NCBI GenBank assembly: GCA_947588945.1 | Contig: CANPZY010000005.1 | Location: forward strand, 1-63,326 | Reading direction: 5' to 3' | DNA length: 63,326 bases | Source: an uncultured Clostridia bacterium | GTDB taxonomy: Bacteria; Bacillota; Clostridia; TANB77; CAG-508 | Shown here: positions 10,886 through 63,117 of the stretch, piece after piece | Numbering within the stretch: the stretch's first letter is position 1 | Layout of the letters: each line of letters opens with the position of its first letter | Notes under the pieces: generated by a model | What the model was told of the DNA's origin: nothing | The model's database searches: none | Seen by the model: the letters and a program-made list of their open reading frames with translations, nothing else | Made by a program: the position numbers and the translations under genes

Positions 10886-14116
<3,231 letters not shown>

Positions 14117-16728: not shown

Positions 16729-17382
16729 ATGGTTGAAGATATAAGCAGATTATTTAATAAGTTAATGGAAGATTTAGAAACTAACATAACTGATAAGGCT
16801 CAAAAGTCTAAAATTAAAAATGAATTAGTCGAACTTGTTTCACTTTTTATCAGTTCATCAAATAATCTTATAAGAATACAAGATAAGCAAGAAATGACTT
16901 TAAATAGAATAAAGAAACTTGAAAGAAAAATATCACAAATTGAAGAAGATATTTATATTGACGATGAGGAAAACAATTATGATAAAATGCATGATAATGA
17001 CTATGAATTTGAGATAAGATGTCCTTATTGTGATTATGACTTTATAATTAGTGAAGAATCTCAAGCTACAGATGAAATAGAATGTCCACAATGCCATAAT
17101 ATAATAGAACTAGATTGGGATGAAGCAAGTGAATGTGCAAAAGACTGTAAAGGTTGCAGTCAACATTGCTATCAAGATGAAGAAGAAACAGATTCTCAAG
17201 TAGAACAACTTTCAGAAGAAAACGAAGAATATAAACCTGATAGTAATGAAAAAAATAATATAAAAGATAATACAAATGATCCTAAAAACAATGAAAACCA
17301 AAATAATGCAAATAATATTCAAGATTTAAAAAAGAATAAAGAAGATAAAAATAAGCAAAATAACAATGAAGATGATATGTAA
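16729..17382 (+). CDS. zinc-ribbon protein with an acidic/Asn-rich tail (resembles the clostridial CD1247 N-terminal domain family, tentative)
   Basis: CPYCDYDF ... CPQCHNIIE zinc ribbon. The ATG at 16729 follows aaagga. The track start at 16714 is a TTG abutting the efp stop. Confidence 0.55.
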   Translation: MVEDISRLFNKLMEDLETNITDKAQKSKIKNELVELVSLFISSSNNLIRIQDKQEMTLNRIKKLERKISQIEEDIYIDDEENNYDKMHDNDYEFEIRCPYCDYDFIISEESQATDEIECPQCHNIIELDWDEASECAKDCKGCSQHCYQDEEETDSQVEQLSEENEEYKPDSNEKNNIKDNTNDPKNNENQNNANNIQDLKKNKEDKNKQNNNEDDM

Positions 17383-17434
17383 ATAATTTTTTAGATTAAT
17401 AAAAATATAAAACCTAAAAAATATATATAATATT

Positions 17435-17569
17435 AAAAAATAAAAATATAATTAATTTTTGTATCTTGTTGTCGCTAAAAGTGGCAAGCCACTTTTGCTC
17501 CATTCGCCCTTCGCGATGCTTCGGTTAATCGCTACACGATACTTCTAATTAATTATATTTTTATTTTTT
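17435..17569 (+). repeat. composite hairpin element, copy A: perfect 23-bp AT stem enclosing a conserved GC-rich structured core
   Basis: aaaaaataaaaatataattaatt (17435-17457) is the exact reverse complement of 17547-17569. The core gtatcttgttgtcgcta ... gctccattcgc ... cgctacacgatac is shared with 40459-40531. Confidence 0.8.
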
Positions 17570-17599
17570 TATAATTTTTAAATTGTAGAAGTTTAATGT

Positions 17600-17960
17600 T
17601 TTTCAGAATTTTAGTTATGAAATCAAATTATTAGAAAATTATTTTTTATTTAATTAATTAAAAAGATTAATAAAAAATAAATATATATAAAATATAGCAA
17701 AATAAAGCTAATTATAGAAGTAAAATAACTATAAAAATTATTACAAAATCGTAAAGAAAGTCGAGTATAAAATCTTGCAAAATCGTTGAGATAAATGGAT
17801 TGCAAGAGTTTATACTTTTTTATTAATCTTTTTACTTAATAAAATATATAGAAGTAAAATATTATAAAGTATTGACTTAATACTTTAAAAATAATAAAAT
17901 TAATATAAATAATAAATATAAAAAATGTAAATAATAAGAAAAGAAGGAGAAAAGCGAAAG
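17600..17960 (+). promoter_or_regulatory. conserved upstream module of pilin-like paralog 1 (18-bp inverted repeats, terminator-like hairpin, TTGACT-17-TAAAAT promoter, RBS)
   Basis: Near-identical to 19262-19573 and 61625-61980. IR at 17660-17677 / 17816-17833. Hairpin at 17773-17807. The -35 is at 17872-17877 and the -10 at 17895-17900. Confidence 0.7.
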
Positions 17961-19151
17961 ATGAGAAAAGTAAATTATAAGGAAATGGGAATCACATTAA
18001 TAGCGCTAGTAGTAACAATTATAATATTGCTAATTTTAGCAGGAGTAACACTATCAACAGCATTAAGCCAAAATGGATTATTTCAAAGAGCAAAGATAGC
18101 AGGAGAAAATTATAAAAGAGCAGAAGCAGATGAAACAGAGAAATTAGGAGAAGTAGAGAAAACAATAGACGAATTAGCAGGAGGAAAAGTAGCAGATAGG
18201 ACAGGATTAAAAATAGGAGATACGGTAAACTATACTTATGATAATGCAGACAACTATGAATTAGAAGGAAAAAATAGTGGATATGGAGAATATGTTAAAA
18301 ATGAAGATGGAACATATAAATTAGATACAGAAAAGAAACAATCAATTGCACAAGTAAGGGATGCAACATGGCAGGTACTAAGCATAAATGATGATGGAAG
18401 TGTAGATTTAGTATGTACGAGTATAGCAGAAGATGGGGCAGACTATTTCAATCAAATGATGTCAGGTTTAGATATGAGTGAAGGAAATAAACATGGAGGA
18501 GTAGCATTTGGAGGAGCGATAGGATATACAAATGGAGTATATTATTTAAATGATATATGTGCAAGACAGTATAGTAATAATTCATTAGGAGTAACAGCAA
18601 GGAATATAAAAATAGAAGATATAGAAAAGCATCTAAATGATTCTGGGAGAGCAACAGTACAACAACTTATAGAGGTAGAAGGAACGAAAGAATATACAGG
18701 AGAAAATGTATATTATCCAAAACTATATGCATATGAAAATGGTTCAGAAATAGATGAAAAAAAATTAACAACAAATGGAATCGGACCTAGTGAAACCGAA
18801 GTATCGAGTGATTCTAGCTTCCAAATACCGATAAGTCATAGTAAAGAGGAAGAAGGATATGGAAAAGCAGGGATAAAACTAGCAGTTAATGGTAATTTTA
18901 TTCAATTGGTTGAATATGATGGAGTATATTTTGATGATAATAGGTTGGATGATTTGCTTTTTAGTATGAATAGTGGATTTTGGGTTGCGTCTCGTTTCGC
19001 TTTTGGTAAAACGCCTGATGATAAGGCGAAATTTGGATTGGATTGTGTCCTAGGTAATGTGTTGTCGGGTCAGCCTATGTTTGATTCTATTGGTTGTATA
19101 GATAGGGTTTTGCGGTTTTTTTGTATGCCCGTTTGTTTCTCTTGGCTCTAG
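17961..19151 (+). CDS. pilin-like protein paralog 1 (prepilin-type N-terminal helix), C-terminus disrupted by a frameshift at a T7 run
   Basis: MRKVNYKEMG/ITLIALVVTIIILLILAGV is shared with the two paralogs. The conserved C-terminal V[RC]P[VF]VSL motif lies in the +1 frame and ends at 19200. Confidence 0.7.
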   Translation: MRKVNYKEMGITLIALVVTIIILLILAGVTLSTALSQNGLFQRAKIAGENYKRAEADETEKLGEVEKTIDELAGGKVADRTGLKIGDTVNYTYDNADNYELEGKNSGYGEYVKNEDGTYKLDTEKKQSIAQVRDATWQVLSINDDGSVDLVCTSIAEDGADYFNQMMSGLDMSEGNKHGGVAFGGAIGYTNGVYYLNDICARQYSNNSLGVTARNIKIEDIEKHLNDSGRATVQQLIEVEGTKEYTGENVYYPKLYAYENGSEIDEKKLTTNGIGPSETEVSSDSSFQIPISHSKEEEGYGKAGIKLAVNGNFIQLVEYDGVYFDDNRLDDLLFSMNSGFWVASRFAFGKTPDDKAKFGLDCVLGNVLSGQPMFDSIGCIDRVLRFFCMPVCFSWL

Positions 19152-19261
19152 TATCCAACTCGTTGAATGTGGTGATGGATCATGGGAAATAACAAAATGA
19201 TTATAAGTAGTAGCTTGTAACGATAAAAGTATGGAATCTCTTTAGATTCTAGGAAAGTTAA

Positions 19262-19573
19262 AAATATTATTAATTAAAAAGATTAATAAAAAATAAATAT
19301 ATATAAAATATAGCAAAATAAAGCTAATTATAGAAGTAAAATAAATATAAAAATTATTACAAAATCGTAAAGAAAGTTAAGCATAAACTCTTGCAAAATC
19401 ATTGAGATAAAAGGATTGCAAGAGTTTATATTTTTTTATTAATCTTTTTACTTAATAAAACATATAGAAGTAAAGTATCATAAAGTATTGACTTAATACT
19501 TTATAAATAATAAAATTAATATAAATGATAAATATAAAAAGCAAATAATAAGAAAAGAAGGAGAAAGCGAAAG
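19262..19573 (+). promoter_or_regulatory. conserved upstream module of pilin-like paralog 2
   Basis: IR at 19276-19293 / 19432-19449. Hairpin at 19385-19427. The -35 is at 19488-19493 and the -10 at 19511-19516. Confidence 0.7.
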
Positions 19574-20707
19574 ATGAGGAAAGTAAATTATAAGGAAAAA
19601 GGAATCACATTAATAGCATTAGTAGTAACAATCATAATATTGTTAATATTAGCAGGAGTAACGCTAACAACAGCATTGAGCCAAAATGGTTTATTTCAAA
19701 GAGCAAAGATAGCAGGAGAAAATTATAAAAAAGCAGAGGCAGATGAGACAGAGAAATTAGGAGAAGTAGAAAAAGAGATAGATAAAATAGTAAATGGAGA
19801 AACTCCACCAGACCCACCATCAAGTGGAATAGGAAGTAGTGACATAGCAGAAGATTTAAAAGAATATCAAGGAAAATATGTAGATATAGGGTTGGATACA
19901 AATGATGATAAACAAGTAAATGATTGGGAAATATTTTATGTAAATGAAGATAGAATATTTTTGATAGCAGCAGATTATGTACCAGTAGAAAATTTAAAAA
20001 AATGGGGAGTAATAGATGGAACATTAAAAAGTAATGGATTCATAGAATATTCTAGTAGCAGTAAATATAGTGTAGGTTGGAGCACGCCTACAACGTTTTT
20101 AAATGAAGGCTTAGCAGATTTAAACTTGGTAATGCATAATGGATATTACTTAAAAGGCCTTACGAGTGCTAGTGATTATAACTCAATAGCAGTATCACAC
20201 TTATTAAATAAAACAGCATGGGAAGGAGTAAAAAATGCAGCGGGTAAGAAGACAAGTATAGATTTTGTAATCGGAGGACCAACATTAGAGATGTGGTGTG
20301 CAGCATGGAATAAAGCTGTAGCTGAAGATGAAACCCTTAAGCAAATTCAAGCTGATGATGTGGGTGCGAGTGGATATTATTTGGGATGTGAAGCGACGAG
20401 CCTGGAGCAAAAGTTTGGATTGTGTGTAAATGGTACGGAATATTCTAATCCAAGTTCAAATGAAATTGAGAAGTACAAGGCTTTTTTTCCTCATACGGCT
20501 ATTTGGCGAGGTTGCTACGGATATTGGTTAGCGTCTCCATCGGCTGAGAAACCTGAGAACTTGTTAAGTGTTTACTTTGGAGGCCTTATAAGAAGCTGGT
20601 TGTATAATAACCACGTTTTGGGCGTGCGTCCCGTAGTTTCTCTAGTATCTGGTGTCCGAATAGAAGAAAGGGCTGATGTGAAGAACGTTTACGATTTAGA
20701 AGAGTAG
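19574..20707 (+). CDS. pilin-like protein paralog 2 with a lectin-like C-terminal domain (YWLASPSAE ... LGVRPVVSL)
   Basis: Conserved N-terminal module. The central DWEIFYVNEDRIFLIAADYVP block and the C-terminal motif are shared with 61981-63117. Confidence 0.8.
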   Translation: MRKVNYKEKGITLIALVVTIIILLILAGVTLTTALSQNGLFQRAKIAGENYKKAEADETEKLGEVEKEIDKIVNGETPPDPPSSGIGSSDIAEDLKEYQGKYVDIGLDTNDDKQVNDWEIFYVNEDRIFLIAADYVPVENLKKWGVIDGTLKSNGFIEYSSSSKYSVGWSTPTTFLNEGLADLNLVMHNGYYLKGLTSASDYNSIAVSHLLNKTAWEGVKNAAGKKTSIDFVIGGPTLEMWCAAWNKAVAEDETLKQIQADDVGASGYYLGCEATSLEQKFGLCVNGTEYSNPSSNEIEKYKAFFPHTAIWRGCYGYWLASPSAEKPENLLSVYFGGLIRSWLYNNHVLGVRPVVSLVSGVRIEERADVKNVYDLEE

Positions 20708-20839
20708 GAGTTAAGGTTGATTAAGTTGCGTACTGCTGGGCCTCGCGTCCAGCCTCGCTCCGATGTATAACGTAATTTTTTAATTTTATAGATTATGTAT
20801 TGTAGAGGAAACTGATATTTTTATAATATTAAAATGGGA

Positions 20840-21078: not shown

Positions 21079-22506
21079 ATGGATGAAAGGCTTTTAAGTC
21101 TTGTACCAAAGCGCTTCCGATGTCCCTATTGTGGAGAATGGCACGAGTGGAAACTTGGGTATAGGTTAGAATTTTATGATTCGTTTGACTATCAAGCTAA
21201 ATTAGAATGTTCTAACGCACCATATGGTTGTAACGAAGGCGATTATAGAATTTATTTCCGTAATGGCTACTGTTACTATTCCACTGTGAAAATGTGCAAA
21301 AGGGCAAATCAATCAATTAGTGGAAAGATTCCAATTTCTTCTATAATTGAAAGTACAAATGCTCCAACTGTCACTTTTGAAGTACCGTTTACTGCGGATT
21401 GTGATGTGGGAAGCTACGAATGCTCAAGTTGCATGTACAGAAGAAAATGTCTTTGTGTCAAGTTGGGTGACGAAGGTGATAAACGCAACATGAAAATCAC
21501 ATTCGGATTTGAATTTGATCAATCACAATACAATCAATTTTCAAAAACTGCAACCTTAGCACAAAAGGAAAAAGAACTGCAAGAGCGCGAACGGGCTATT
21601 GATAGCAAGGAACAGGCCTTAAAAGAGCGCGAACAGACTATTGACAGCAAAGAACTTGCTTTAAAAGAGCGAGAAGATGCTGTTGCTAGTAAAAAACAAG
21701 TTTCTAGGCAGTCACAGGTAAAAGAAAATAAGGAGGATACAGCTATGGCAAAAAACATTTTTAACGTAAACATGGAGTTTGGTCCCAACAAGGACGAGAA
21801 CATTACAAGTACCCTTATGGGCGTTGCTGTCAAGAACGGCGACAACTGGCGGATTTATGACAAGAAGAAGAAGGAAATCACTGATGTCGGCGACATTCAG
21901 CTCGGCAATCTGCCTATCTTCATTCTGCCCACTACCCAGCTCAGCGAGGGCGATCTTATCAAGGACAACGGAGAGTACTATTTTGTAACTAAGGTTGCGA
22001 CGACCAAGACACCGACTCAGACCTTGTCTGCGAGAACTGGCGAGATGAAGAACGTCGTTCCCATCAAGAACATTCTGGGCTTCAGTTGCTACTCGAAGGT
22101 TATTGCCCTCAGCGATTCACTCAACCTGGGAGATGACTTGGATGTAGAAAAGCTGGCCATTATGTCGGCAATGTGCGGTCAGACTGGCGAGGACGGAGGC
22201 CAGATGAATCAGCTCCTGCCTTTGTTCCTTTTCAAGGATGGGATTGGAGGAGATGATGACATGACGAAGCTGTTGCTTATGTCTTCCATGATGACCTCTG
22301 AAGAAGACGGAGGCCAGATGAATCAGCTCCTTCCTCTGTTGCTTTTCAAGGATAAGCTTGGAGGCGATGATGACACGATGAAGCTGTTGCTCATGTCGTC
22401 CATGATGGGCGGCAATATGGCAGGTTCTAACAACCCTGTTATGGGTTATCTGATGATTGATACACTTCTGGGAAAGAAAGAACATTCTCAGAAGGCCGAT
22501 GAATAA
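21079..22506 (+). CDS. chimeric hypothetical protein: Cys-rich N-domain, coiled-coil repeats, then a high-GC C-terminal module with an internal duplication
   Basis: RBS aggaggt. CPYCGEW ... CSSCMYRRKC. DSKEQALKEREQTIDSKELALKERE repeats. An internal aaggagg RBS precedes the in-frame ATG at 21745. C-terminal duplicated units EDGGQMNQLLPL[FL]LFKD.[IL]GGDDD.(T)KLLLMSSMM. Confidence 0.6.
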   Translation: MDERLLSLVPKRFRCPYCGEWHEWKLGYRLEFYDSFDYQAKLECSNAPYGCNEGDYRIYFRNGYCYYSTVKMCKRANQSISGKIPISSIIESTNAPTVTFEVPFTADCDVGSYECSSCMYRRKCLCVKLGDEGDKRNMKITFGFEFDQSQYNQFSKTATLAQKEKELQERERAIDSKEQALKEREQTIDSKELALKEREDAVASKKQVSRQSQVKENKEDTAMAKNIFNVNMEFGPNKDENITSTLMGVAVKNGDNWRIYDKKKKEITDVGDIQLGNLPIFILPTTQLSEGDLIKDNGEYYFVTKVATTKTPTQTLSARTGEMKNVVPIKNILGFSCYSKVIALSDSLNLGDDLDVEKLAIMSAMCGQTGEDGGQMNQLLPLFLFKDGIGGDDDMTKLLLMSSMMTSEEDGGQMNQLLPLLLFKDKLGGDDDTMKLLLMSSMMGGNMAGSNNPVMGYLMIDTLLGKKEHSQKADE

Positions 22507-38558: not shown

Positions 38559-39293
38559 ATGTATTTAAATGATATTCATATATTATATTATTTTTTTATA
38601 GGGCTTCTAGGATTTGCAGTAGGACAAGTAATGAATTGGGTTAATATTAGATTAGAAGACCATGAAAAAGTGTTTGGCAAGGAATTTTTTAAAAATTATA
38701 TTCCACATATGAAAATTAATTGTAGTTTAATTTTTTCAACAGCAATAATCTATATAGTATTGTTATATATTTATGGATGGCAAATAAAACTAATTGAATA
38801 TTTAATACTTACTCCATTAATTATATCTGCTTTTGTGATAGATTATAGAAAGCAGATAATACCAAATAGATTAACATTAACTATATTAGAAGTTGGAATT
38901 ATATTTACATTTATTTTAGGATTATCAAATATTAATGATTTGTTAAATGGACTATTAGGATTAATTACAGGTGGTGGAATATTCTTAATAATAACATTAA
39001 TTGGTGGACTTATAGCAGGAAAAGAAGCAATGGGCTTTGGTGATGTAAAGCTTATGGGTGCATTAGGATTAATGTTTGGATTTACTAACATAATATTGAT
39101 TGCAGTACTATCTTTTTTAATAGGGGCAATAATTAGTATAATATTATTATTAACAAAAAAGAAAAAAACAAACGAATACATACCATTTGGACCATTTATT
39201 GTTATAGGAACTTTTATAGTAATGTTAGTTCCACATAATTGGCTATTATTTATATTGTTAAAGATATTTACATTAGGAATGTTTAAAGTATAA
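38559..39293 (+). CDS. type IV prepilin peptidase (A24 family), lacking the N-terminal methyltransferase/zinc domain
   Basis: Polytopic membrane protein with IPNRLTL and the aspartyl motif GFGDVKLMGALGLMFG. Confidence 0.8.
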   Translation: MYLNDIHILYYFFIGLLGFAVGQVMNWVNIRLEDHEKVFGKEFFKNYIPHMKINCSLIFSTAIIYIVLLYIYGWQIKLIEYLILTPLIISAFVIDYRKQIIPNRLTLTILEVGIIFTFILGLSNINDLLNGLLGLITGGGIFLIITLIGGLIAGKEAMGFGDVKLMGALGLMFGFTNIILIAVLSFLIGAIISIILLLTKKKKTNEYIPFGPFIVIGTFIVMLVPHNWLLFILLKIFTLGMFKV

Positions 39294-40433: not shown

Positions 40434-40557
40434 AAAAATGAAAATATTATAATTTCTCGTATCTTGTTGTCGCTAGAAAGTGATAAATCACTTTCGCTCC
40501 ATTCGCGCTTCGCTTGAGCGCTACGCGATACTTCGAAATTATAATATTTTCATTTTT
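40434..40557 (+). repeat. composite hairpin element, copy B
   Basis: aaaaatgaaaatattataattt (40434-40455) is the exact reverse complement of 40536-40557. The core at 40459-40531 is homologous to 17461-17542. Confidence 0.8.
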
Positions 40558-59054: not shown

Positions 59055-60446
59055 ATGGTATTTTCAAGTATTACATTTTTATTTTATTTTTTGCCAATAG
59101 TGCTTGGAGTTTATTATATAGTACCAAAAAAAATTAAAAATATTGTACTTTTAGTTGCATCATTCGTTTTTTATTTTTTTGGAGAACCAAAATATGTATT
59201 ATTAATGTTATTTTCTATTTTAACTACATACATATTTGGTATTTTAATTGATAAATATAGAAAAACAGAAAAATCAAAGATATTTTTAGCTATAGCATGT
59301 GCCATTAGCATTGGATTATTAGTTTACTTTAAATATGCAAATTTTTTAATAGAAAATATTAATCTATGGCTAAAAAATAAAGTAGACTTTATCAATGTAG
59401 CTTTACCAATTGGTATATCTTTTTATACTTTTCAAATGTTAAGCTACTTAGTAGATGTTTATAAAGGTAATGCAAAAGTACAAAAAAGTCTTTTAAAGTT
59501 AGCTATGTATGTGTCGCTGTTTCCACAACTAATTGCCGGTCCAATAGTAAGATATACAACAATACAAGACCAACTAGAAAACAGAACTCATACTATTGAA
59601 AAGTTTGCTTTAGGTGTTAGAAGGTTTATTATAGGACTAAGCAAAAAAGTTTTAATTGCAAATGTGTTAGGAGAGCTTGTAAGCACATTTTTATCAAGCA
59701 ATGAGATGAGCATATTATATTATTGGCTATATGCTATTTCTGCAATGCTTCAGATTTACTTTGATTTTTCTGGATATTCAGATATGGCAATTGGACTTGG
59801 CAAAATGTTTGGATTTGAATTTTTAGAAAACTTTAACTATCCATATATTGCAACAAGCATTACTGATTTTTGGAGAAGATGGCATATATCTTTAAGTAGT
59901 TGGTTTAGGGACTATGTATATATTCCACTTGGTGGAAATAGAACCACAAAAGTAAAGTGGTTAAGAAATATAATGATAGTATGGTTACTTACTGGATTAT
60001 GGCATGGAGCAGCATGGAACTTTGTTATATGGGGACTTTACTTTGGCATTTTGTTAATTGTAGAAAAGATATTCTTAGGAAAATATTTAGAAAAAATTCC
60101 AAAAATATTTTCACATCTCTATGTACTAATTATAGTAATGGTTAGTTTTATAATATTTAATGGTGATAATACATCAATGATTTTACAAAATATAGGTGGT
60201 CTTGTAGGTATAAAAGGTGTGCCTTTTATTTTACCTGAAAGTATATATTATTTAAAAAGCTATTTTATAATCATAATAATTGGAATAATAGGAGCAACAC
60301 CAATTCTAAAAAACATTGCTACATCAAAAAAATTGGAAAAGATAGTAAATGTATTAGAACCAGTATTTTTGCTATGCTTACTTGTAATATGTACTTCTTA
60401 TATTGTTGATGGTTCTTTTAATCCATTTCTATATTTTAGGTTTTAA
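59055..60446 (+). CDS. MBOAT-family O-acyltransferase (AlgI/DltB-like)
   Basis: ISFYTFQMLSYLVDVYKG ... FWRRWHISLSSWFRDYVYIPLGG with the conserved His. Confidence 0.85.
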   Translation: MVFSSITFLFYFLPIVLGVYYIVPKKIKNIVLLVASFVFYFFGEPKYVLLMLFSILTTYIFGILIDKYRKTEKSKIFLAIACAISIGLLVYFKYANFLIENINLWLKNKVDFINVALPIGISFYTFQMLSYLVDVYKGNAKVQKSLLKLAMYVSLFPQLIAGPIVRYTTIQDQLENRTHTIEKFALGVRRFIIGLSKKVLIANVLGELVSTFLSSNEMSILYYWLYAISAMLQIYFDFSGYSDMAIGLGKMFGFEFLENFNYPYIATSITDFWRRWHISLSSWFRDYVYIPLGGNRTTKVKWLRNIMIVWLLTGLWHGAAWNFVIWGLYFGILLIVEKIFLGKYLEKIPKIFSHLYVLIIVMVSFIIFNGDNTSMILQNIGGLVGIKGVPFILPESIYYLKSYFIIIIIGIIGATPILKNIATSKKLEKIVNVLEPVFLLCLLVICTSYIVDGSFNPFLYFRF

Positions 60447-60463: not shown

Positions 60464-61546
60464 ATGAAAAATAAAATAATAGCAATTGGCTTTATAACCA
60501 TATTATTTGTATGCTTTACTTTAAACATTGTAAAAAAAGATAAGGAAATATCAATATCTGAAAGAAGAAAATTAGCAGTGTTTCCAACAATAACATTAAA
60601 AAATGTGCTAAATGGCAAAACTTCAGAAGAATTTGATAAATACACTGTAGATCAATTCATTTTTAGAGATTATTTTAGAAGTATAAAATCTTTTTGGTCA
60701 AATTACATATTTAAGAAAAAAGATAATAATGGACTATTTTTAAAGGATAATAGTATTTATAAAATAGAATATCCATTAAATGAAGAATATGTTAAAAAAT
60801 CTGCTGAGAAGATAAAAAATGTTTGTGAAAAATATTTAAATGAAGATATGAATATATATTATTCAATTATTCCAGATAAAAATTATTATTTAGAATCCGA
60901 TTATTTAAAAATAGATGTAAAAGATATGCAAAAGATAATGTCAAAAAGTTTGCCACAAATTAAGTATATTGATATTACAAATGATTTAAGTATTGAAGAT
61001 TATTATAAAACAGATTTGCACTGGAAACAGGAAAGTATTAGAAATGTAGTAAACACTTTCGAAAGTAAAATGAATTTAAAAGATACTTCAAACATTAATT
61101 ATGAAAAGCATGAATTAGGAGATTTTTACGGTACATATTATGGACAATTAGGCATGAGCTTGCCACCTGACAAAATAACTATTTTAAGTGATAGAATAAT
61201 AGAAAATGCAAATTGCTACAACTATGAAACAAATAAAATAGGAACTATATATGATATAAAAAAATGGCAAACATCTTCTGATAAATATGATATTTTTCTA
61301 TCTGGTGCAGTTTCACTTATTACAATAGAAAATAAATTTAATCAAAACGGAAAGGAACTTTTACTATTTAGAGATTCTTTTGGAAGCAGTATAGCTCCAT
61401 TATTGTTAGAAAATTATCAAAAAATTACTTTAATAGATTTAAGATATATTTCAAGCTCAATATTAAGCAATTATATTGATTTTAATAATCAAGATGTACT
61501 ATTTTTATATAGCTCATTAGTTTTGAATCAAAACGTGTTAAGATAA
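60464..61546 (+). CDS. DHHW-family protein (AlgX/AlgJ-like partner of MBOAT)
   Basis: N-terminal anchor, YYKTDLHWKQES (DxHW motif) and LLFRDSFGSS. Confidence 0.75.
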   Translation: MKNKIIAIGFITILFVCFTLNIVKKDKEISISERRKLAVFPTITLKNVLNGKTSEEFDKYTVDQFIFRDYFRSIKSFWSNYIFKKKDNNGLFLKDNSIYKIEYPLNEEYVKKSAEKIKNVCEKYLNEDMNIYYSIIPDKNYYLESDYLKIDVKDMQKIMSKSLPQIKYIDITNDLSIEDYYKTDLHWKQESIRNVVNTFESKMNLKDTSNINYEKHELGDFYGTYYGQLGMSLPPDKITILSDRIIENANCYNYETNKIGTIYDIKKWQTSSDKYDIFLSGAVSLITIENKFNQNGKELLLFRDSFGSSIAPLLLENYQKITLIDLRYISSSILSNYIDFNNQDVLFLYSSLVLNQNVLR

Positions 61547-61624: not shown

Positions 61625-61980
61625 TGAATTTTAGTTATAAAATAAAATCATTAGAAAATTTATTTTTTATTTAATTAATTTAAAAGATTAATAAAAAATA
61701 AATATAACTAAAATATAGCAAAATAAAGTCAATTATAGAATAAAAAGAAATATAAAAATTATTACAAAAATGTAAAGAAAATTAATTATAAACTCTTGCA
61801 AAATCATTGATATAAATGAATTGCAAGAGTTTATACTTTTTTATTAATCTTTTAACTTAATAAAACATATAGAAGTAAAGTATTATAAAGTATTGACTTA
61901 ATACTTTATAAATAATAAAATTAATATAAATAATAAATATAAAAAAAGCAAATAATAAAAAAGAAGGAGAAAAGCGAAAG
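61625..61980 (+). promoter_or_regulatory. conserved upstream module of pilin-like paralog 3
   Basis: IR at 61681-61698 / 61837-61854 with a compensatory outer base pair. Hairpin around 61789-61832. The -35 is at 61893-61898 and the -10 at 61916-61921. Confidence 0.7.
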
Positions 61981-63117
61981 ATGAGAAAAGTAAATTATAA
62001 GGAAAAAGGAATCACATTAATAGCGCTAGTAGTAACAATTATAATATTGTTAATTTTAGCAGGAGTAACACTAACAACAGCATTGAGCCAAAATGGATTA
62101 TTTCAAAGAGCAAAGATAGTAGTAGAAAAATATAAAGAAGCAGAGGCAGATGAGGCAGAAAAATTAGGAGAAGTGGAAAAGGAGCTAGATAAAATAATAG
62201 ATGGAGAAACACCACCAGATCCACCAAAAAAACCAGATCCAGTTGAGGTAACAGAAAAAAATCTAAAAGAATTTCAAGGAAAATATGTAGATATAGGGTT
62301 AGATACAAATGATAATAAAGAAGTGGATGATTGGGAAATATTTTATGTAAATGAAGGTAGAATATTTTTAATAGCTGTGGACTATGTTCCAGTATCCCAA
62401 TTAAGCACATGGGGAGTAATGAAAGCATTAAACGATACTGGGTTTCAACGATGTAGAGATGATTATGAATATAATGTAAATTGGAATATGCCTGAAACCT
62501 TTTTGGAAGAAGGCTTAGCAGATTTAAACTTGGTAAAGCATACAACCTATGACTTAAAGGACAATAGGAATAAAGTGAACTCAATAGCAGTATCACACTT
62601 ACTAAATACGACAGCATGGAATGGGGTAAAAACAGCAGCAAGTGCAGATAAACAACAATATATAGATTTTGTAATCGGAGGATCAACATTAGAGATGTGG
62701 TGTGAGGCATGGAATGTAGCTGTAGATGGAGATGAGACCCTTAAACGAATTCGTGCTGATGGTAGTGGTACGAGTGGATATTATGTGGGATGTGAAGCGA
62801 CAAACCATGAGAAAGAGGAGGAATTGTATGTAAATGGTTCGATAGATTCTGCGGTAGAATTAACTAAACTTGATAAGTACGAGACATTTTTCCCTCATAC
62901 GGCTCAATATGAAAGTTGCGACGGATATTGGTTGGCGTCTCCTTCCGCTGAAGTGAACCCTGGATGCTTGATGTACGTGAGGTTTGACGGGGGCGTTAAG
63001 TTGTATGCCACTACCAGTGGCTGGTACTTGGGTGTGCGACCGGTGGTTTCTCTAGAATCTGGAGTCAGAATTGTAAAGAGGGAAGGTGCGAATAAGATAT
63101 ACGACGTGATTATGTAG
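61981..63117 (+). CDS. pilin-like protein paralog 3 with a lectin-like C-terminal domain
   Basis: Same N-terminal 65 aa and central blocks as 19574-20707. C-terminus is DGYWLASPSAE ... YLGVRPVVSLESGVRI. Confidence 0.8.
   Translation: MRKVNYKEKGITLIALVVTIIILLILAGVTLTTALSQNGLFQRAKIVVEKYKEAEADEAEKLGEVEKELDKIIDGETPPDPPKKPDPVEVTEKNLKEFQGKYVDIGLDTNDNKEVDDWEIFYVNEGRIFLIAVDYVPVSQLSTWGVMKALNDTGFQRCRDDYEYNVNWNMPETFLEEGLADLNLVKHTTYDLKDNRNKVNSIAVSHLLNTTAWNGVKTAASADKQQYIDFVIGGSTLEMWCEAWNVAVDGDETLKRIRADGSGTSGYYVGCEATNHEKEEELYVNGSIDSAVELTKLDKYETFFPHTAQYESCDGYWLASPSAEVNPGCLMYVRFDGGVKLYATTSGWYLGVRPVVSLESGVRIVKREGANKIYDVIM

Follow-up and report, generated by a model that had tools for sequence, protein, structure and literature searches.

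A 63,326-nt stretch of contig CANPZY010000005.1 (positions 1-63,326) from an uncultured Clostridia bacterium, which is analyzed here over its whole length and called the window, carries three genes for pilin-like proteins that share a 5′ block, and this block probably represents a family of invertible promoter switches driving prepilin-leader proteins with swappable binding domains. The genes, all on the plus strand, are c1 (17961-19151; an open reading frame (ORF) of 396 aa), in which a prepilin-like leader and stalk (codons 1-~73) are followed by a payload of unknown fold; c2 (19574-20707; 377 aa), with a prepilin-like leader and stalk, a Pro-rich linker, and a DUF6273-like globular domain; and c3 (61981-63117; 378 aa), a paralog of c2. 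All three proteins open with MRKVNYKE[KM]GITLIALVVTIIILLILAGVTL. As judged from the sequence, the block would consist of three parts, the first being a ~195-bp switch in which 27-31-bp inverted repeats surround a 138-bp segment, with a putative promoter at the left end and a putative terminator at the right end. The second would be a ~115-nt leader with a ribosome-binding site, and the third a run of ~68-73 codons for a predicted prepilin-like leader, hydrophobic helix, and long stalk helix that ends at a flexible linker.

To delimit the shared block, we combined a repeat search of the window with a sliding identity profile of c1, c2, and c3. The repeat search gave two three-copy families, one of 300 nt with 90-91% identity at 17635/19251/61656 and a second at 17906/19519/61926. 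In the profile, 60-nt windows are 85-100% identical across a common block of ~520 nt, which extends from ~17640/19262/61660 to ~18150/19765/62170. The near-identical 5′ module that the initial annotation had described in the three genes is thereby confirmed, though its dimensions shift slightly, as the non-coding share amounts to 312 nt (c2) to ~350 nt (c1 vs c3) rather than the claimed 370 nt, and the coding share to ~205 nt (~68 codons) rather than 190 nt. Identity along the genes is not flat, for past the block it drops steeply, to ~30-50% for c1 against c2 or c3 and to 45-90% for c2 against c3. Moreover, the payloads are, as had been proposed, far more diverged than the module; those of c2 and c3 are 58% identical, and that of c1 is of a different kind, with no detectable homology to the c2/c3 payload (blastp E of at least 0.005; hhalign probability 0.3%). 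Here, we noticed that conservation begins exactly at the left inverted repeat of each locus, and that upstream of this repeat nothing is conserved between all copies, including any promoter. The reading of the upstream DNA as just a fixed promoter is not supported, and its anatomy looks instead like that of an invertible switch, a feature that the initial annotation had missed.

The layout of the putative switch is the same at all three loci, with repeat arms that lie 138 nt apart in each case. At c1, the left (17647-17677) and right (17816-17846) repeats pair as 31-nt arms with 94% complementarity and enclose the predicted invertible segment (17678-17815), which is homologous to ~62 elements in related metagenome-assembled genomes (MAGs) and is inverted in one of them (L032). 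The c2 arms (19267-19293 and 19432-19458) are 27 nt long, 96% complementary, and enclose 19294-19431, and the c3 arms (61670-61698 and 61837-61865) are 29 nt long, 93% complementary, and enclose 61699-61836. Inverted-repeat scores at the three loci reach 23-25, whereas shuffled sequences average 10-12 and peak at 16-17 (for c1, 25 against a mean of 11.7 and a maximum of 16). Inside the segment, the extended -10 motif TGCTATATT adjoins the left arm on the minus strand in all three switches (17691-17699, where it faces away from c1; 19307-19315; 61712-61720). Adjoining the right arm is a terminator-like hairpin of 14-17 bp followed by a T run, with energies of -17 to -24 kcal/mol (z = -3 to -6.5). 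At c1, this hairpin with its T run occupies 17764-17822 on the plus strand (arms 17764-17780 and 17800-17816; -20.9 kcal/mol, z = -4.0), and the c2 and c3 hairpins are found at 19383-19429 and 61784-61838, respectively. Between the right arm and the gene lies the ~115-nt leader with a fixed promoter-like site, TTGACT-17-TAAAAT, on the plus strand (17872-17900, 19488-19516, and 61893-61921), and then AAGGAG as the ribosome-binding site; in the c1 leader, the palindrome AAAGTATTGACTTAATACTTT is found at 17866-17886. Separately, we observed a 15-nt direct repeat, TATAGAAGTAAAATA, both within the segment (17713-17727; 19329-19343) and just past the right repeat (17847-17861; 19463-19477), which could be an accessory protein site or the trace of a partial duplication.

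To follow the element beyond the window, whose closest genomes are rabbit-gut MAGs labeled "uncultured Clostridia bacterium", we used an iterated nhmmer profile of the repeat-bounded element. This revealed ~62 copies in the window and related loci from at least 8 MAGs and answers the call of the initial annotation to look for further copies in related genomes. Each of the ~62 copies immediately precedes a family gene, with tandem arrays frequently carrying one for every gene, and none lies away from family genes in the 63-kb window. A scan of species genomes located 80 loci of the family, nearly all in gut Clostridia MAGs, with at least 11 from Lapin-028__bin79 (bin79) and more than 25 from Lapin-015__bin75 (bin75). 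Proteins that differ in their C-terminal parts share the N-terminal 75 residues at 85-95% identity, and in the relatives the leader module is carried by at least 4 payload classes, including an FGE-sulfatase-like one, the c1 type, and the P0082/P0117 type. In a syntenic species (EF-P gene 86% identical), the element is ~70-75% identical and has the same layout. Further away, nhmmer found no element at 80 more distant loci, human-gut relatives among them, that came from a metagenome scan with the N-terminal profile (leader identity 45-64%), and a long upstream repeat is present at only 2 of these 80, one of which (L113) again has the 138-nt spacing. The exact promoter 21-mer has 0 matches in the GTDB species genomes, these being representatives that do not include the window's own species. 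A second switch type was seen before another family gene in a window-clade genome (L082:9717-9932), with a CTTAAT-type repeat as in other MAGs and a different, longer inner segment. Contigs from other samples were also observed to end inside the repeated 5′ module (the end of L169, equivalent to window position 19469, and the end of L083), from which it appears that the family fragments assemblies.

In an alignment of 59 copies, the two kinds of complementary sequence in the element are constrained in different ways. Watson-Crick pairs make up 98.7% of the repeat arms, with 2 G-U and 0 A-C cells, and 6 of their positions change on both sides together; such near-perfect pairing with almost no G-U fits identical recombinase sites at the DNA level. 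The hairpin, on the other hand, has compensatory changes at 10 of its 14 outer pairs and 37 G-U vs 12 A-C cells on the plus strand, and this tolerance of G-U on the strand read toward the gene is consistent with an RNA terminator that stops transcription heading that way. The most conserved inner motif is TGnTAwwwT, present in 58 of the 59 copies and the best minus-strand promoter site in 53 of them, and in the majority of copies a TTGATT is located 17 nt upstream of the TGCTATATT-type motif; the best sites on the plus strand are weaker and scattered. Moreover, the ATG in most MAG copies stands only 25-40 nt past the right repeat, too close for another promoter to fit between them. Transcription of the gene would then have to start within the element or cross it, a path that the terminator would block in the common orientation. 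We infer a promoter activity for TGCTATATT and, from motif conservation and geometry, an ON/OFF assignment by which all three window switches are predicted to be OFF or basal.

Two of the related copies have the opposite orientation. One is L032 (bin79), where the element profile hits the non-gene strand over its positions 8-200 but the gene strand over the right repeat and the leader. When the repeat-bounded stretch of c2 is inverted in silico, L032 aligns with c2 end to end, and the inversion breakpoints coincide exactly with the repeats. A single NCBI contig encodes the protein that follows this inverted switch. Since assembler k-mers exceed the repeats in length, such an assembly would presumably have required reads in the inverted orientation. 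In the partial copy L039 (bin75), the TGCTATATT end is next to the gene and the terminator part is lost. In all other full copies, including the three window loci, TGCTATATT faces away from the gene. As an aside, L039:1-175 is a deletion derivative of the switch with its promoter end locked in the gene-facing position and an additional, directly oriented copy of the repeat, a structure that would be the expected outcome of recombination between directly oriented sites.

In the mechanism that we propose, a site-specific recombinase, encoded at another site of the genome, would flip the 138-bp segment. With the segment in its common orientation, the promoter would fire outward and the terminator would stand before the gene, which would be silent or transcribed weakly from the fixed site, and after inversion the promoter would fire through the right repeat into the gene. 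Each cell may thus display a subset of many alternative surface binding proteins; with few genes ON per cell, consensus assemblies would be nearly all OFF, as is observed. The module would be kept alike by the need of all copies to serve one recombinase and one processing and export machinery, and also by gene conversion or recombination among copies, with the payloads left to diverge freely. As a more tentative extension, dozens of genes per genome in low-GC gut Clostridia might each join the leader to an exchangeable domain, lectin-like or of another kind, behind a switch of their own, with a single master invertase flipping all of them as a Gram-positive counterpart of the Bacteroides Mpi regulon, and with the repeats and 5′ modules doubling as recombination handles by which switches and leaders pass between payloads.

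At the protein level, a family profile weakly matches the N-termini of MshA, PilA, and geopilin in the protein data bank (PDB; E = 0.016-0.05), and NCBIfam returned no family for c1, c2, or c3. The leader resembles a class III (prepilin) signal and would presumably be cleaved as one, for which a prepilin (type IV leader) peptidase encoded at 38559-39293 on the plus strand (Pfam Peptidase_A24, 67.6 bits) is a candidate processing enzyme for the three leaders. No pilus assembly genes surround this peptidase gene, and a Pfam search of the window ORFs gave neither a pilus assembly ATPase nor platform genes. AlphaFold2 models of c2 and c1, with predicted local distance difference test (pLDDT) scores of 88.8 and 82.4, respectively, both contain a helix at residues 7-35, a second at 40-73, a linker, and a separate globular domain. 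The linker is of low confidence, flexible, and Pro-rich, and it coincides with the module boundary; the pilin fold, in which an α1 helix packs on a β-sheet head, is absent from both models. For the c2 payload, the only PDB match is the immunoglobulin A (IgA) peptidase of Thomasclavelia ramosa (PDB ID: 9qa6), found both with the family profile (E = 2.9e-4) and by Foldseek with the model (E = 2.8e-4, probability 0.95). The N-terminal domain of this peptidase is a DUF6273 (PMC12402451); the fold also serves receptor-binding proteins of phages and has been likened to C-type lectins (PMC10743442). Although c2 itself has no Pfam match, its relatives P0036 and P0047 pass the DUF6273 (PF19789) cut-off, and the best reading of the models and profiles is that c2 and c3 carry a DUF6273 lectin-like domain. 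The c1 payload, though modeled with confidence, matched neither a PDB fold nor a Pfam family, and its profile is not similar to that of the c2 type.

Several observations weigh against the view that the block is an invertible promoter switch for prepilin-leader proteins. The -35 of the inner promoter is poor in the window clade, and ~85 extra nt past the right repeat, found only in this clade, carry the fixed TTGACT-17-TAAAAT site, which is kept in 9 of the 11 copies of the sister genome bin79. A fixed leader promoter could make the genes independent of the switch; if this site were active, the switch would raise expression and not gate it. The opposite orientation is seen in only one full (L032) and one partial (L039) copy of the ~62, and these could be fixed rearrangements. 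Both orientations were not found at any one locus, with L082/L083, L167/L168, and L169 all in the common one; L169, which represents the window strain in a second sample (99.8% identical), keeps the orientation of the window. A recombinase gene tied to the family was not found by Pfam in ~55 window ORFs (nearly all of those with at least 120 aa), and phmmer probes with Hin, FimB, XerD, and one integrase gave no family-linked recombinase in the fetched loci, only an unrelated integrase. As for the leader, Pfam N_methyl scores c2 and c3 at 18.7-18.8 bits, under the cut-off of 21.2, and does not match c1, and position +5 is Ala, not Glu (KG|ITLIA), in all three proteins and their relatives.

Some of these points would suit a static regulatory region, in which the repeats serve as operator-like sites or simply enclose an insulating terminator, transcription of the genes depends on the fixed TTGACT-17-TAAAAT site, conversion and constraint keep the block alike, and the inverted copies are fixed rearrangements. 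The fixed site has ideal spacing at the three window loci and in most sister-genome copies, its -35 falls within a 21-nt palindrome, a potential regulator-binding site, 59 of the ~62 copies share one orientation, and the window strain is unchanged in the second sample. Nevertheless, we consider a static region unlikely, since most related MAG copies keep the whole element without having room for a promoter past the right repeat, the best conserved inner motif is an outward extended -10 that has no role in such a model, the L032 breakpoints are exactly at the repeats, and covariation between the repeat arms is perfect. With its 27-31-nt terminal inverted repeats and one copy in the opposite orientation, the ~195-bp unit might also be taken for a miniature inverted-repeat transposable element inserted upstream of family genes. 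This origin is highly improbable for an element that always precedes a member of one gene family at a constant distance, with none elsewhere in the 63-kb window, with the leader and the N-terminal codons conserved along with it, and with no target-site duplications noted. We give just as little credence to a transcribed cis-regulatory leader RNA (a riboswitch or attenuator) in which the long repeats would pair as a stem; the hairpin does co-vary like an RNA, G-U pairs included, but no promoter is conserved upstream of the left repeat, which is exactly where conservation sets in, the repeat arms are essentially free of G-U, and an inversion as in L032 would destroy such an RNA. Rfam gave no riboswitch or leader RNA match for the whole window at the gathering threshold, nor for 17300-18000 at E ≤ 1. 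Cassette exchange of the shufflon or pilS type, for which the initial annotation had suggested a search for promoterless 3′ cassettes, is not supported either, as tblastn of the payloads detected no such cassettes and no additional full or partial family copies in the window, only the three complete, co-oriented genes, each with its full 5′ module. A diversity-generating retroelement was likewise not found in the window by repeat search and tblastn.

A further alternative is ordinary duplication, by which the genes would be old paralogs whose 5′ ends are kept by purifying selection alone, with no exchange; in view of how the module varies within and between genomes, it is very unlikely. Over the first 204 coding nt, paralogs from one genome share 90-93% identity whichever payload they carry (91% for c1-c2 and 93% for L003-L004), but genes from different genomes share only 83-88%, even with the same payload type. 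For example, c1 and L004 have modules of 83% identity with payloads that are 34% identical (E = 2e-37), and c2 and L003 have modules of 87% identity with payloads that are 50% identical. Genome-specific residues cross payload types, as with VVT/ALSQ/AKIAGENYK in the window vs VIT/ALGQ/AKYAGEKYKES in bin79. Modules thus group by genome and not by payload type, and those of c1 and c2 are 91-92% identical even though their payloads are unrelated. The variants are also mosaic, with the informative sites of c1, c2, c3, and L001 backing all three possible groupings in spatial blocks (8 runs in 22 informative sites; permutation p = 0.0014, or 0.014 without edge sites). L167 and L168, which represent one locus from two samples and have identical flanks, have ~11 differences within ~80 nt of the hairpin loop and right repeat (L167:9777-9965 vs L168:9777-9965), and this cluster looks like a conversion tract. 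We also noted that the two repeat arms of the L167 switch no longer match perfectly. Between c2 and c3, the non-synonymous divergence (dN) is 0.03 for the module vs 0.34 for the payload, and the synonymous divergence (dS) is 0.27 vs 0.46. These values are what can be said for a plain duplication, as the module dS is not far below that of the payload and dN is tenfold apart. The non-coding switch, on the other hand, is 8-12% different and so less diverged than synonymous sites, which indicates constraint on the element itself. Homogenization of the 5′ module by gene conversion, as put forward in the initial annotation, is accordingly supported by the genome-wise grouping and the mosaic variants. 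Its claim that the genes represent more than an old duplication holds for the genome-specific, mosaic modules, though much of the contrast between c2 and c3 comes from selection at the protein level.

With respect to the source, the window has a G+C content of ~27% and encodes SpoIVA, from which the host is read as a spore-forming Clostridia bacterium. The third gene does lie next to O-acylation genes, as had been stated, with an MBOAT gene (59055-60446) and a DHHW gene (60464-61546) preceding c3 as a pair. Just downstream of c2, a 475-aa ORF (21079-22506) has a Cys-rich N-terminus, a coiled-coil, and no above-threshold family match, and it contains a tandem 114-nt repeat (22184-22407) that encodes GGQMNQLLPLFLFKD-type units. 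Another repeat-containing gene (10886-14116) specifies a 1076-aa Asn-rich low-complexity protein with 48-nt tandem repeats at 12927-13095, and it is conserved in the syntenic loci L167 and L169 (1056-1059 aa). Two copies of a G+C-rich, hairpin-like element of ~95 nt are located in AT-rich spacers (17455-17550 and 40455-40535); their inner stems differ in a compensatory way (AAAGTGGCAAGCCACTTT vs AAAGTGATAAATCACTTT), they have no Rfam or tRNA match, and they could be a small RNA or a repetitive extragenic palindromic (REP)-like repeat. In the species syntenic with the window, an RVT_1 reverse-transcriptase fragment (L167:12679-13227, minus strand) is found 1.5 kb downstream of a lectin-like family gene and may be the remnant of a diversity-generating retroelement or a group II intron.

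If the switches flip, uncultured gut Clostridia would vary their surface by means of a large family of binding proteins that are phase-variable gene by gene, a strategy that has ample precedent in Bacteroides capsules and Mycoplasma lipoproteins but very little in Clostridia. This would also account for 5′ ends that stay alike in genes whose binding domains diverge. The repeats together with TGCTATATT offer a defined DNA motif with which such switches can be located in metagenomes, and the prepilin-leader proteins with lectin-like domains are flagged as likely host- or glycan-contact factors. A warning for metagenomic work is that assemblies give only the majority orientation and that contigs break at the repeated modules.

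Invertible promoters are known from fimS of E. coli and from the capsule and surface loci of Bacteroides fragilis that are flipped by the global recombinase Mpi. Like these, the element described here has a short promoter-type segment between inverted repeats upstream of genes for surface structures, occurs in many similar copies per genome, and belongs to a kind of system in which the recombinase need not be adjacent. Unlike these, it also holds a terminator, has become fused in evolution to a conserved coding leader, and precedes single genes of one paralog family in low-GC uncultured Clostridia, where switching is predicted. In the vsp, vsa, and vlp families of Mycoplasma, which encode variable lipoproteins, inversions move a single promoter between genes, or else poly-A tracts are used. 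The similarities to these families are a near-identical 5′ non-coding region and signal peptide, divergent payloads, concerted evolution of the 5′ end and, if the switches flip, phase variation by DNA rearrangement; the difference is that each gene here has a switch of its own. In the PilV/Rci shufflon of R64 and the Piv system of Moraxella, coding cassettes that lack their own 5′ ends are inverted. There, as here, a pilin-type C-terminus varies behind a constant N-terminus, and it does so by site-specific recombination, whereas the three window genes are complete and co-oriented, with no partial cassettes.

Among the Clostridia, the closest parallel in layout is cwpV of C. difficile, which is switched by RecV (PMC2784873). 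It likewise places a surface-protein gene behind a ~195-bp inverted-repeat segment, has an OFF state based on a terminator, and depends on a recombinase encoded elsewhere, as we would infer here. However, the cwpV promoter lies upstream of the switch, with none in the segment, whereas here the motif is inside and nothing upstream is conserved; in addition, cwpV is a single locus and not a gene family (PMC2784873). Surveys of invertible promoters in gut strains have included Clostridia (PMC11892184, PMC11602134), and full-text searches for a link between invertible promoters (or invertons) and the pilin or prepilin genes of Clostridia or Firmicutes brought up no published account of this family. 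As regards the proteins, the closest concept is the modular pilin, a carrier leader with a grafted binding module (PMC8179133), though membership in this class would be tentative. Our proteins differ from the modular pilins PilB and PilC of Streptococcus sanguinis in having no small pilin head in the AlphaFold2 models, Ala at +5, a sub-threshold N_methyl score, and no nearby pilus assembly genes. They resemble them in the predicted prepilin-type leader and helix, the short linker, and the putative grafted binding module, and in the presence of many alternative modules on one kind of carrier (PMC8179133). The element is of particular interest for its scale, with dozens of copies in a genome, for the way it is fused to a coding leader, and for its clear concerted evolution.

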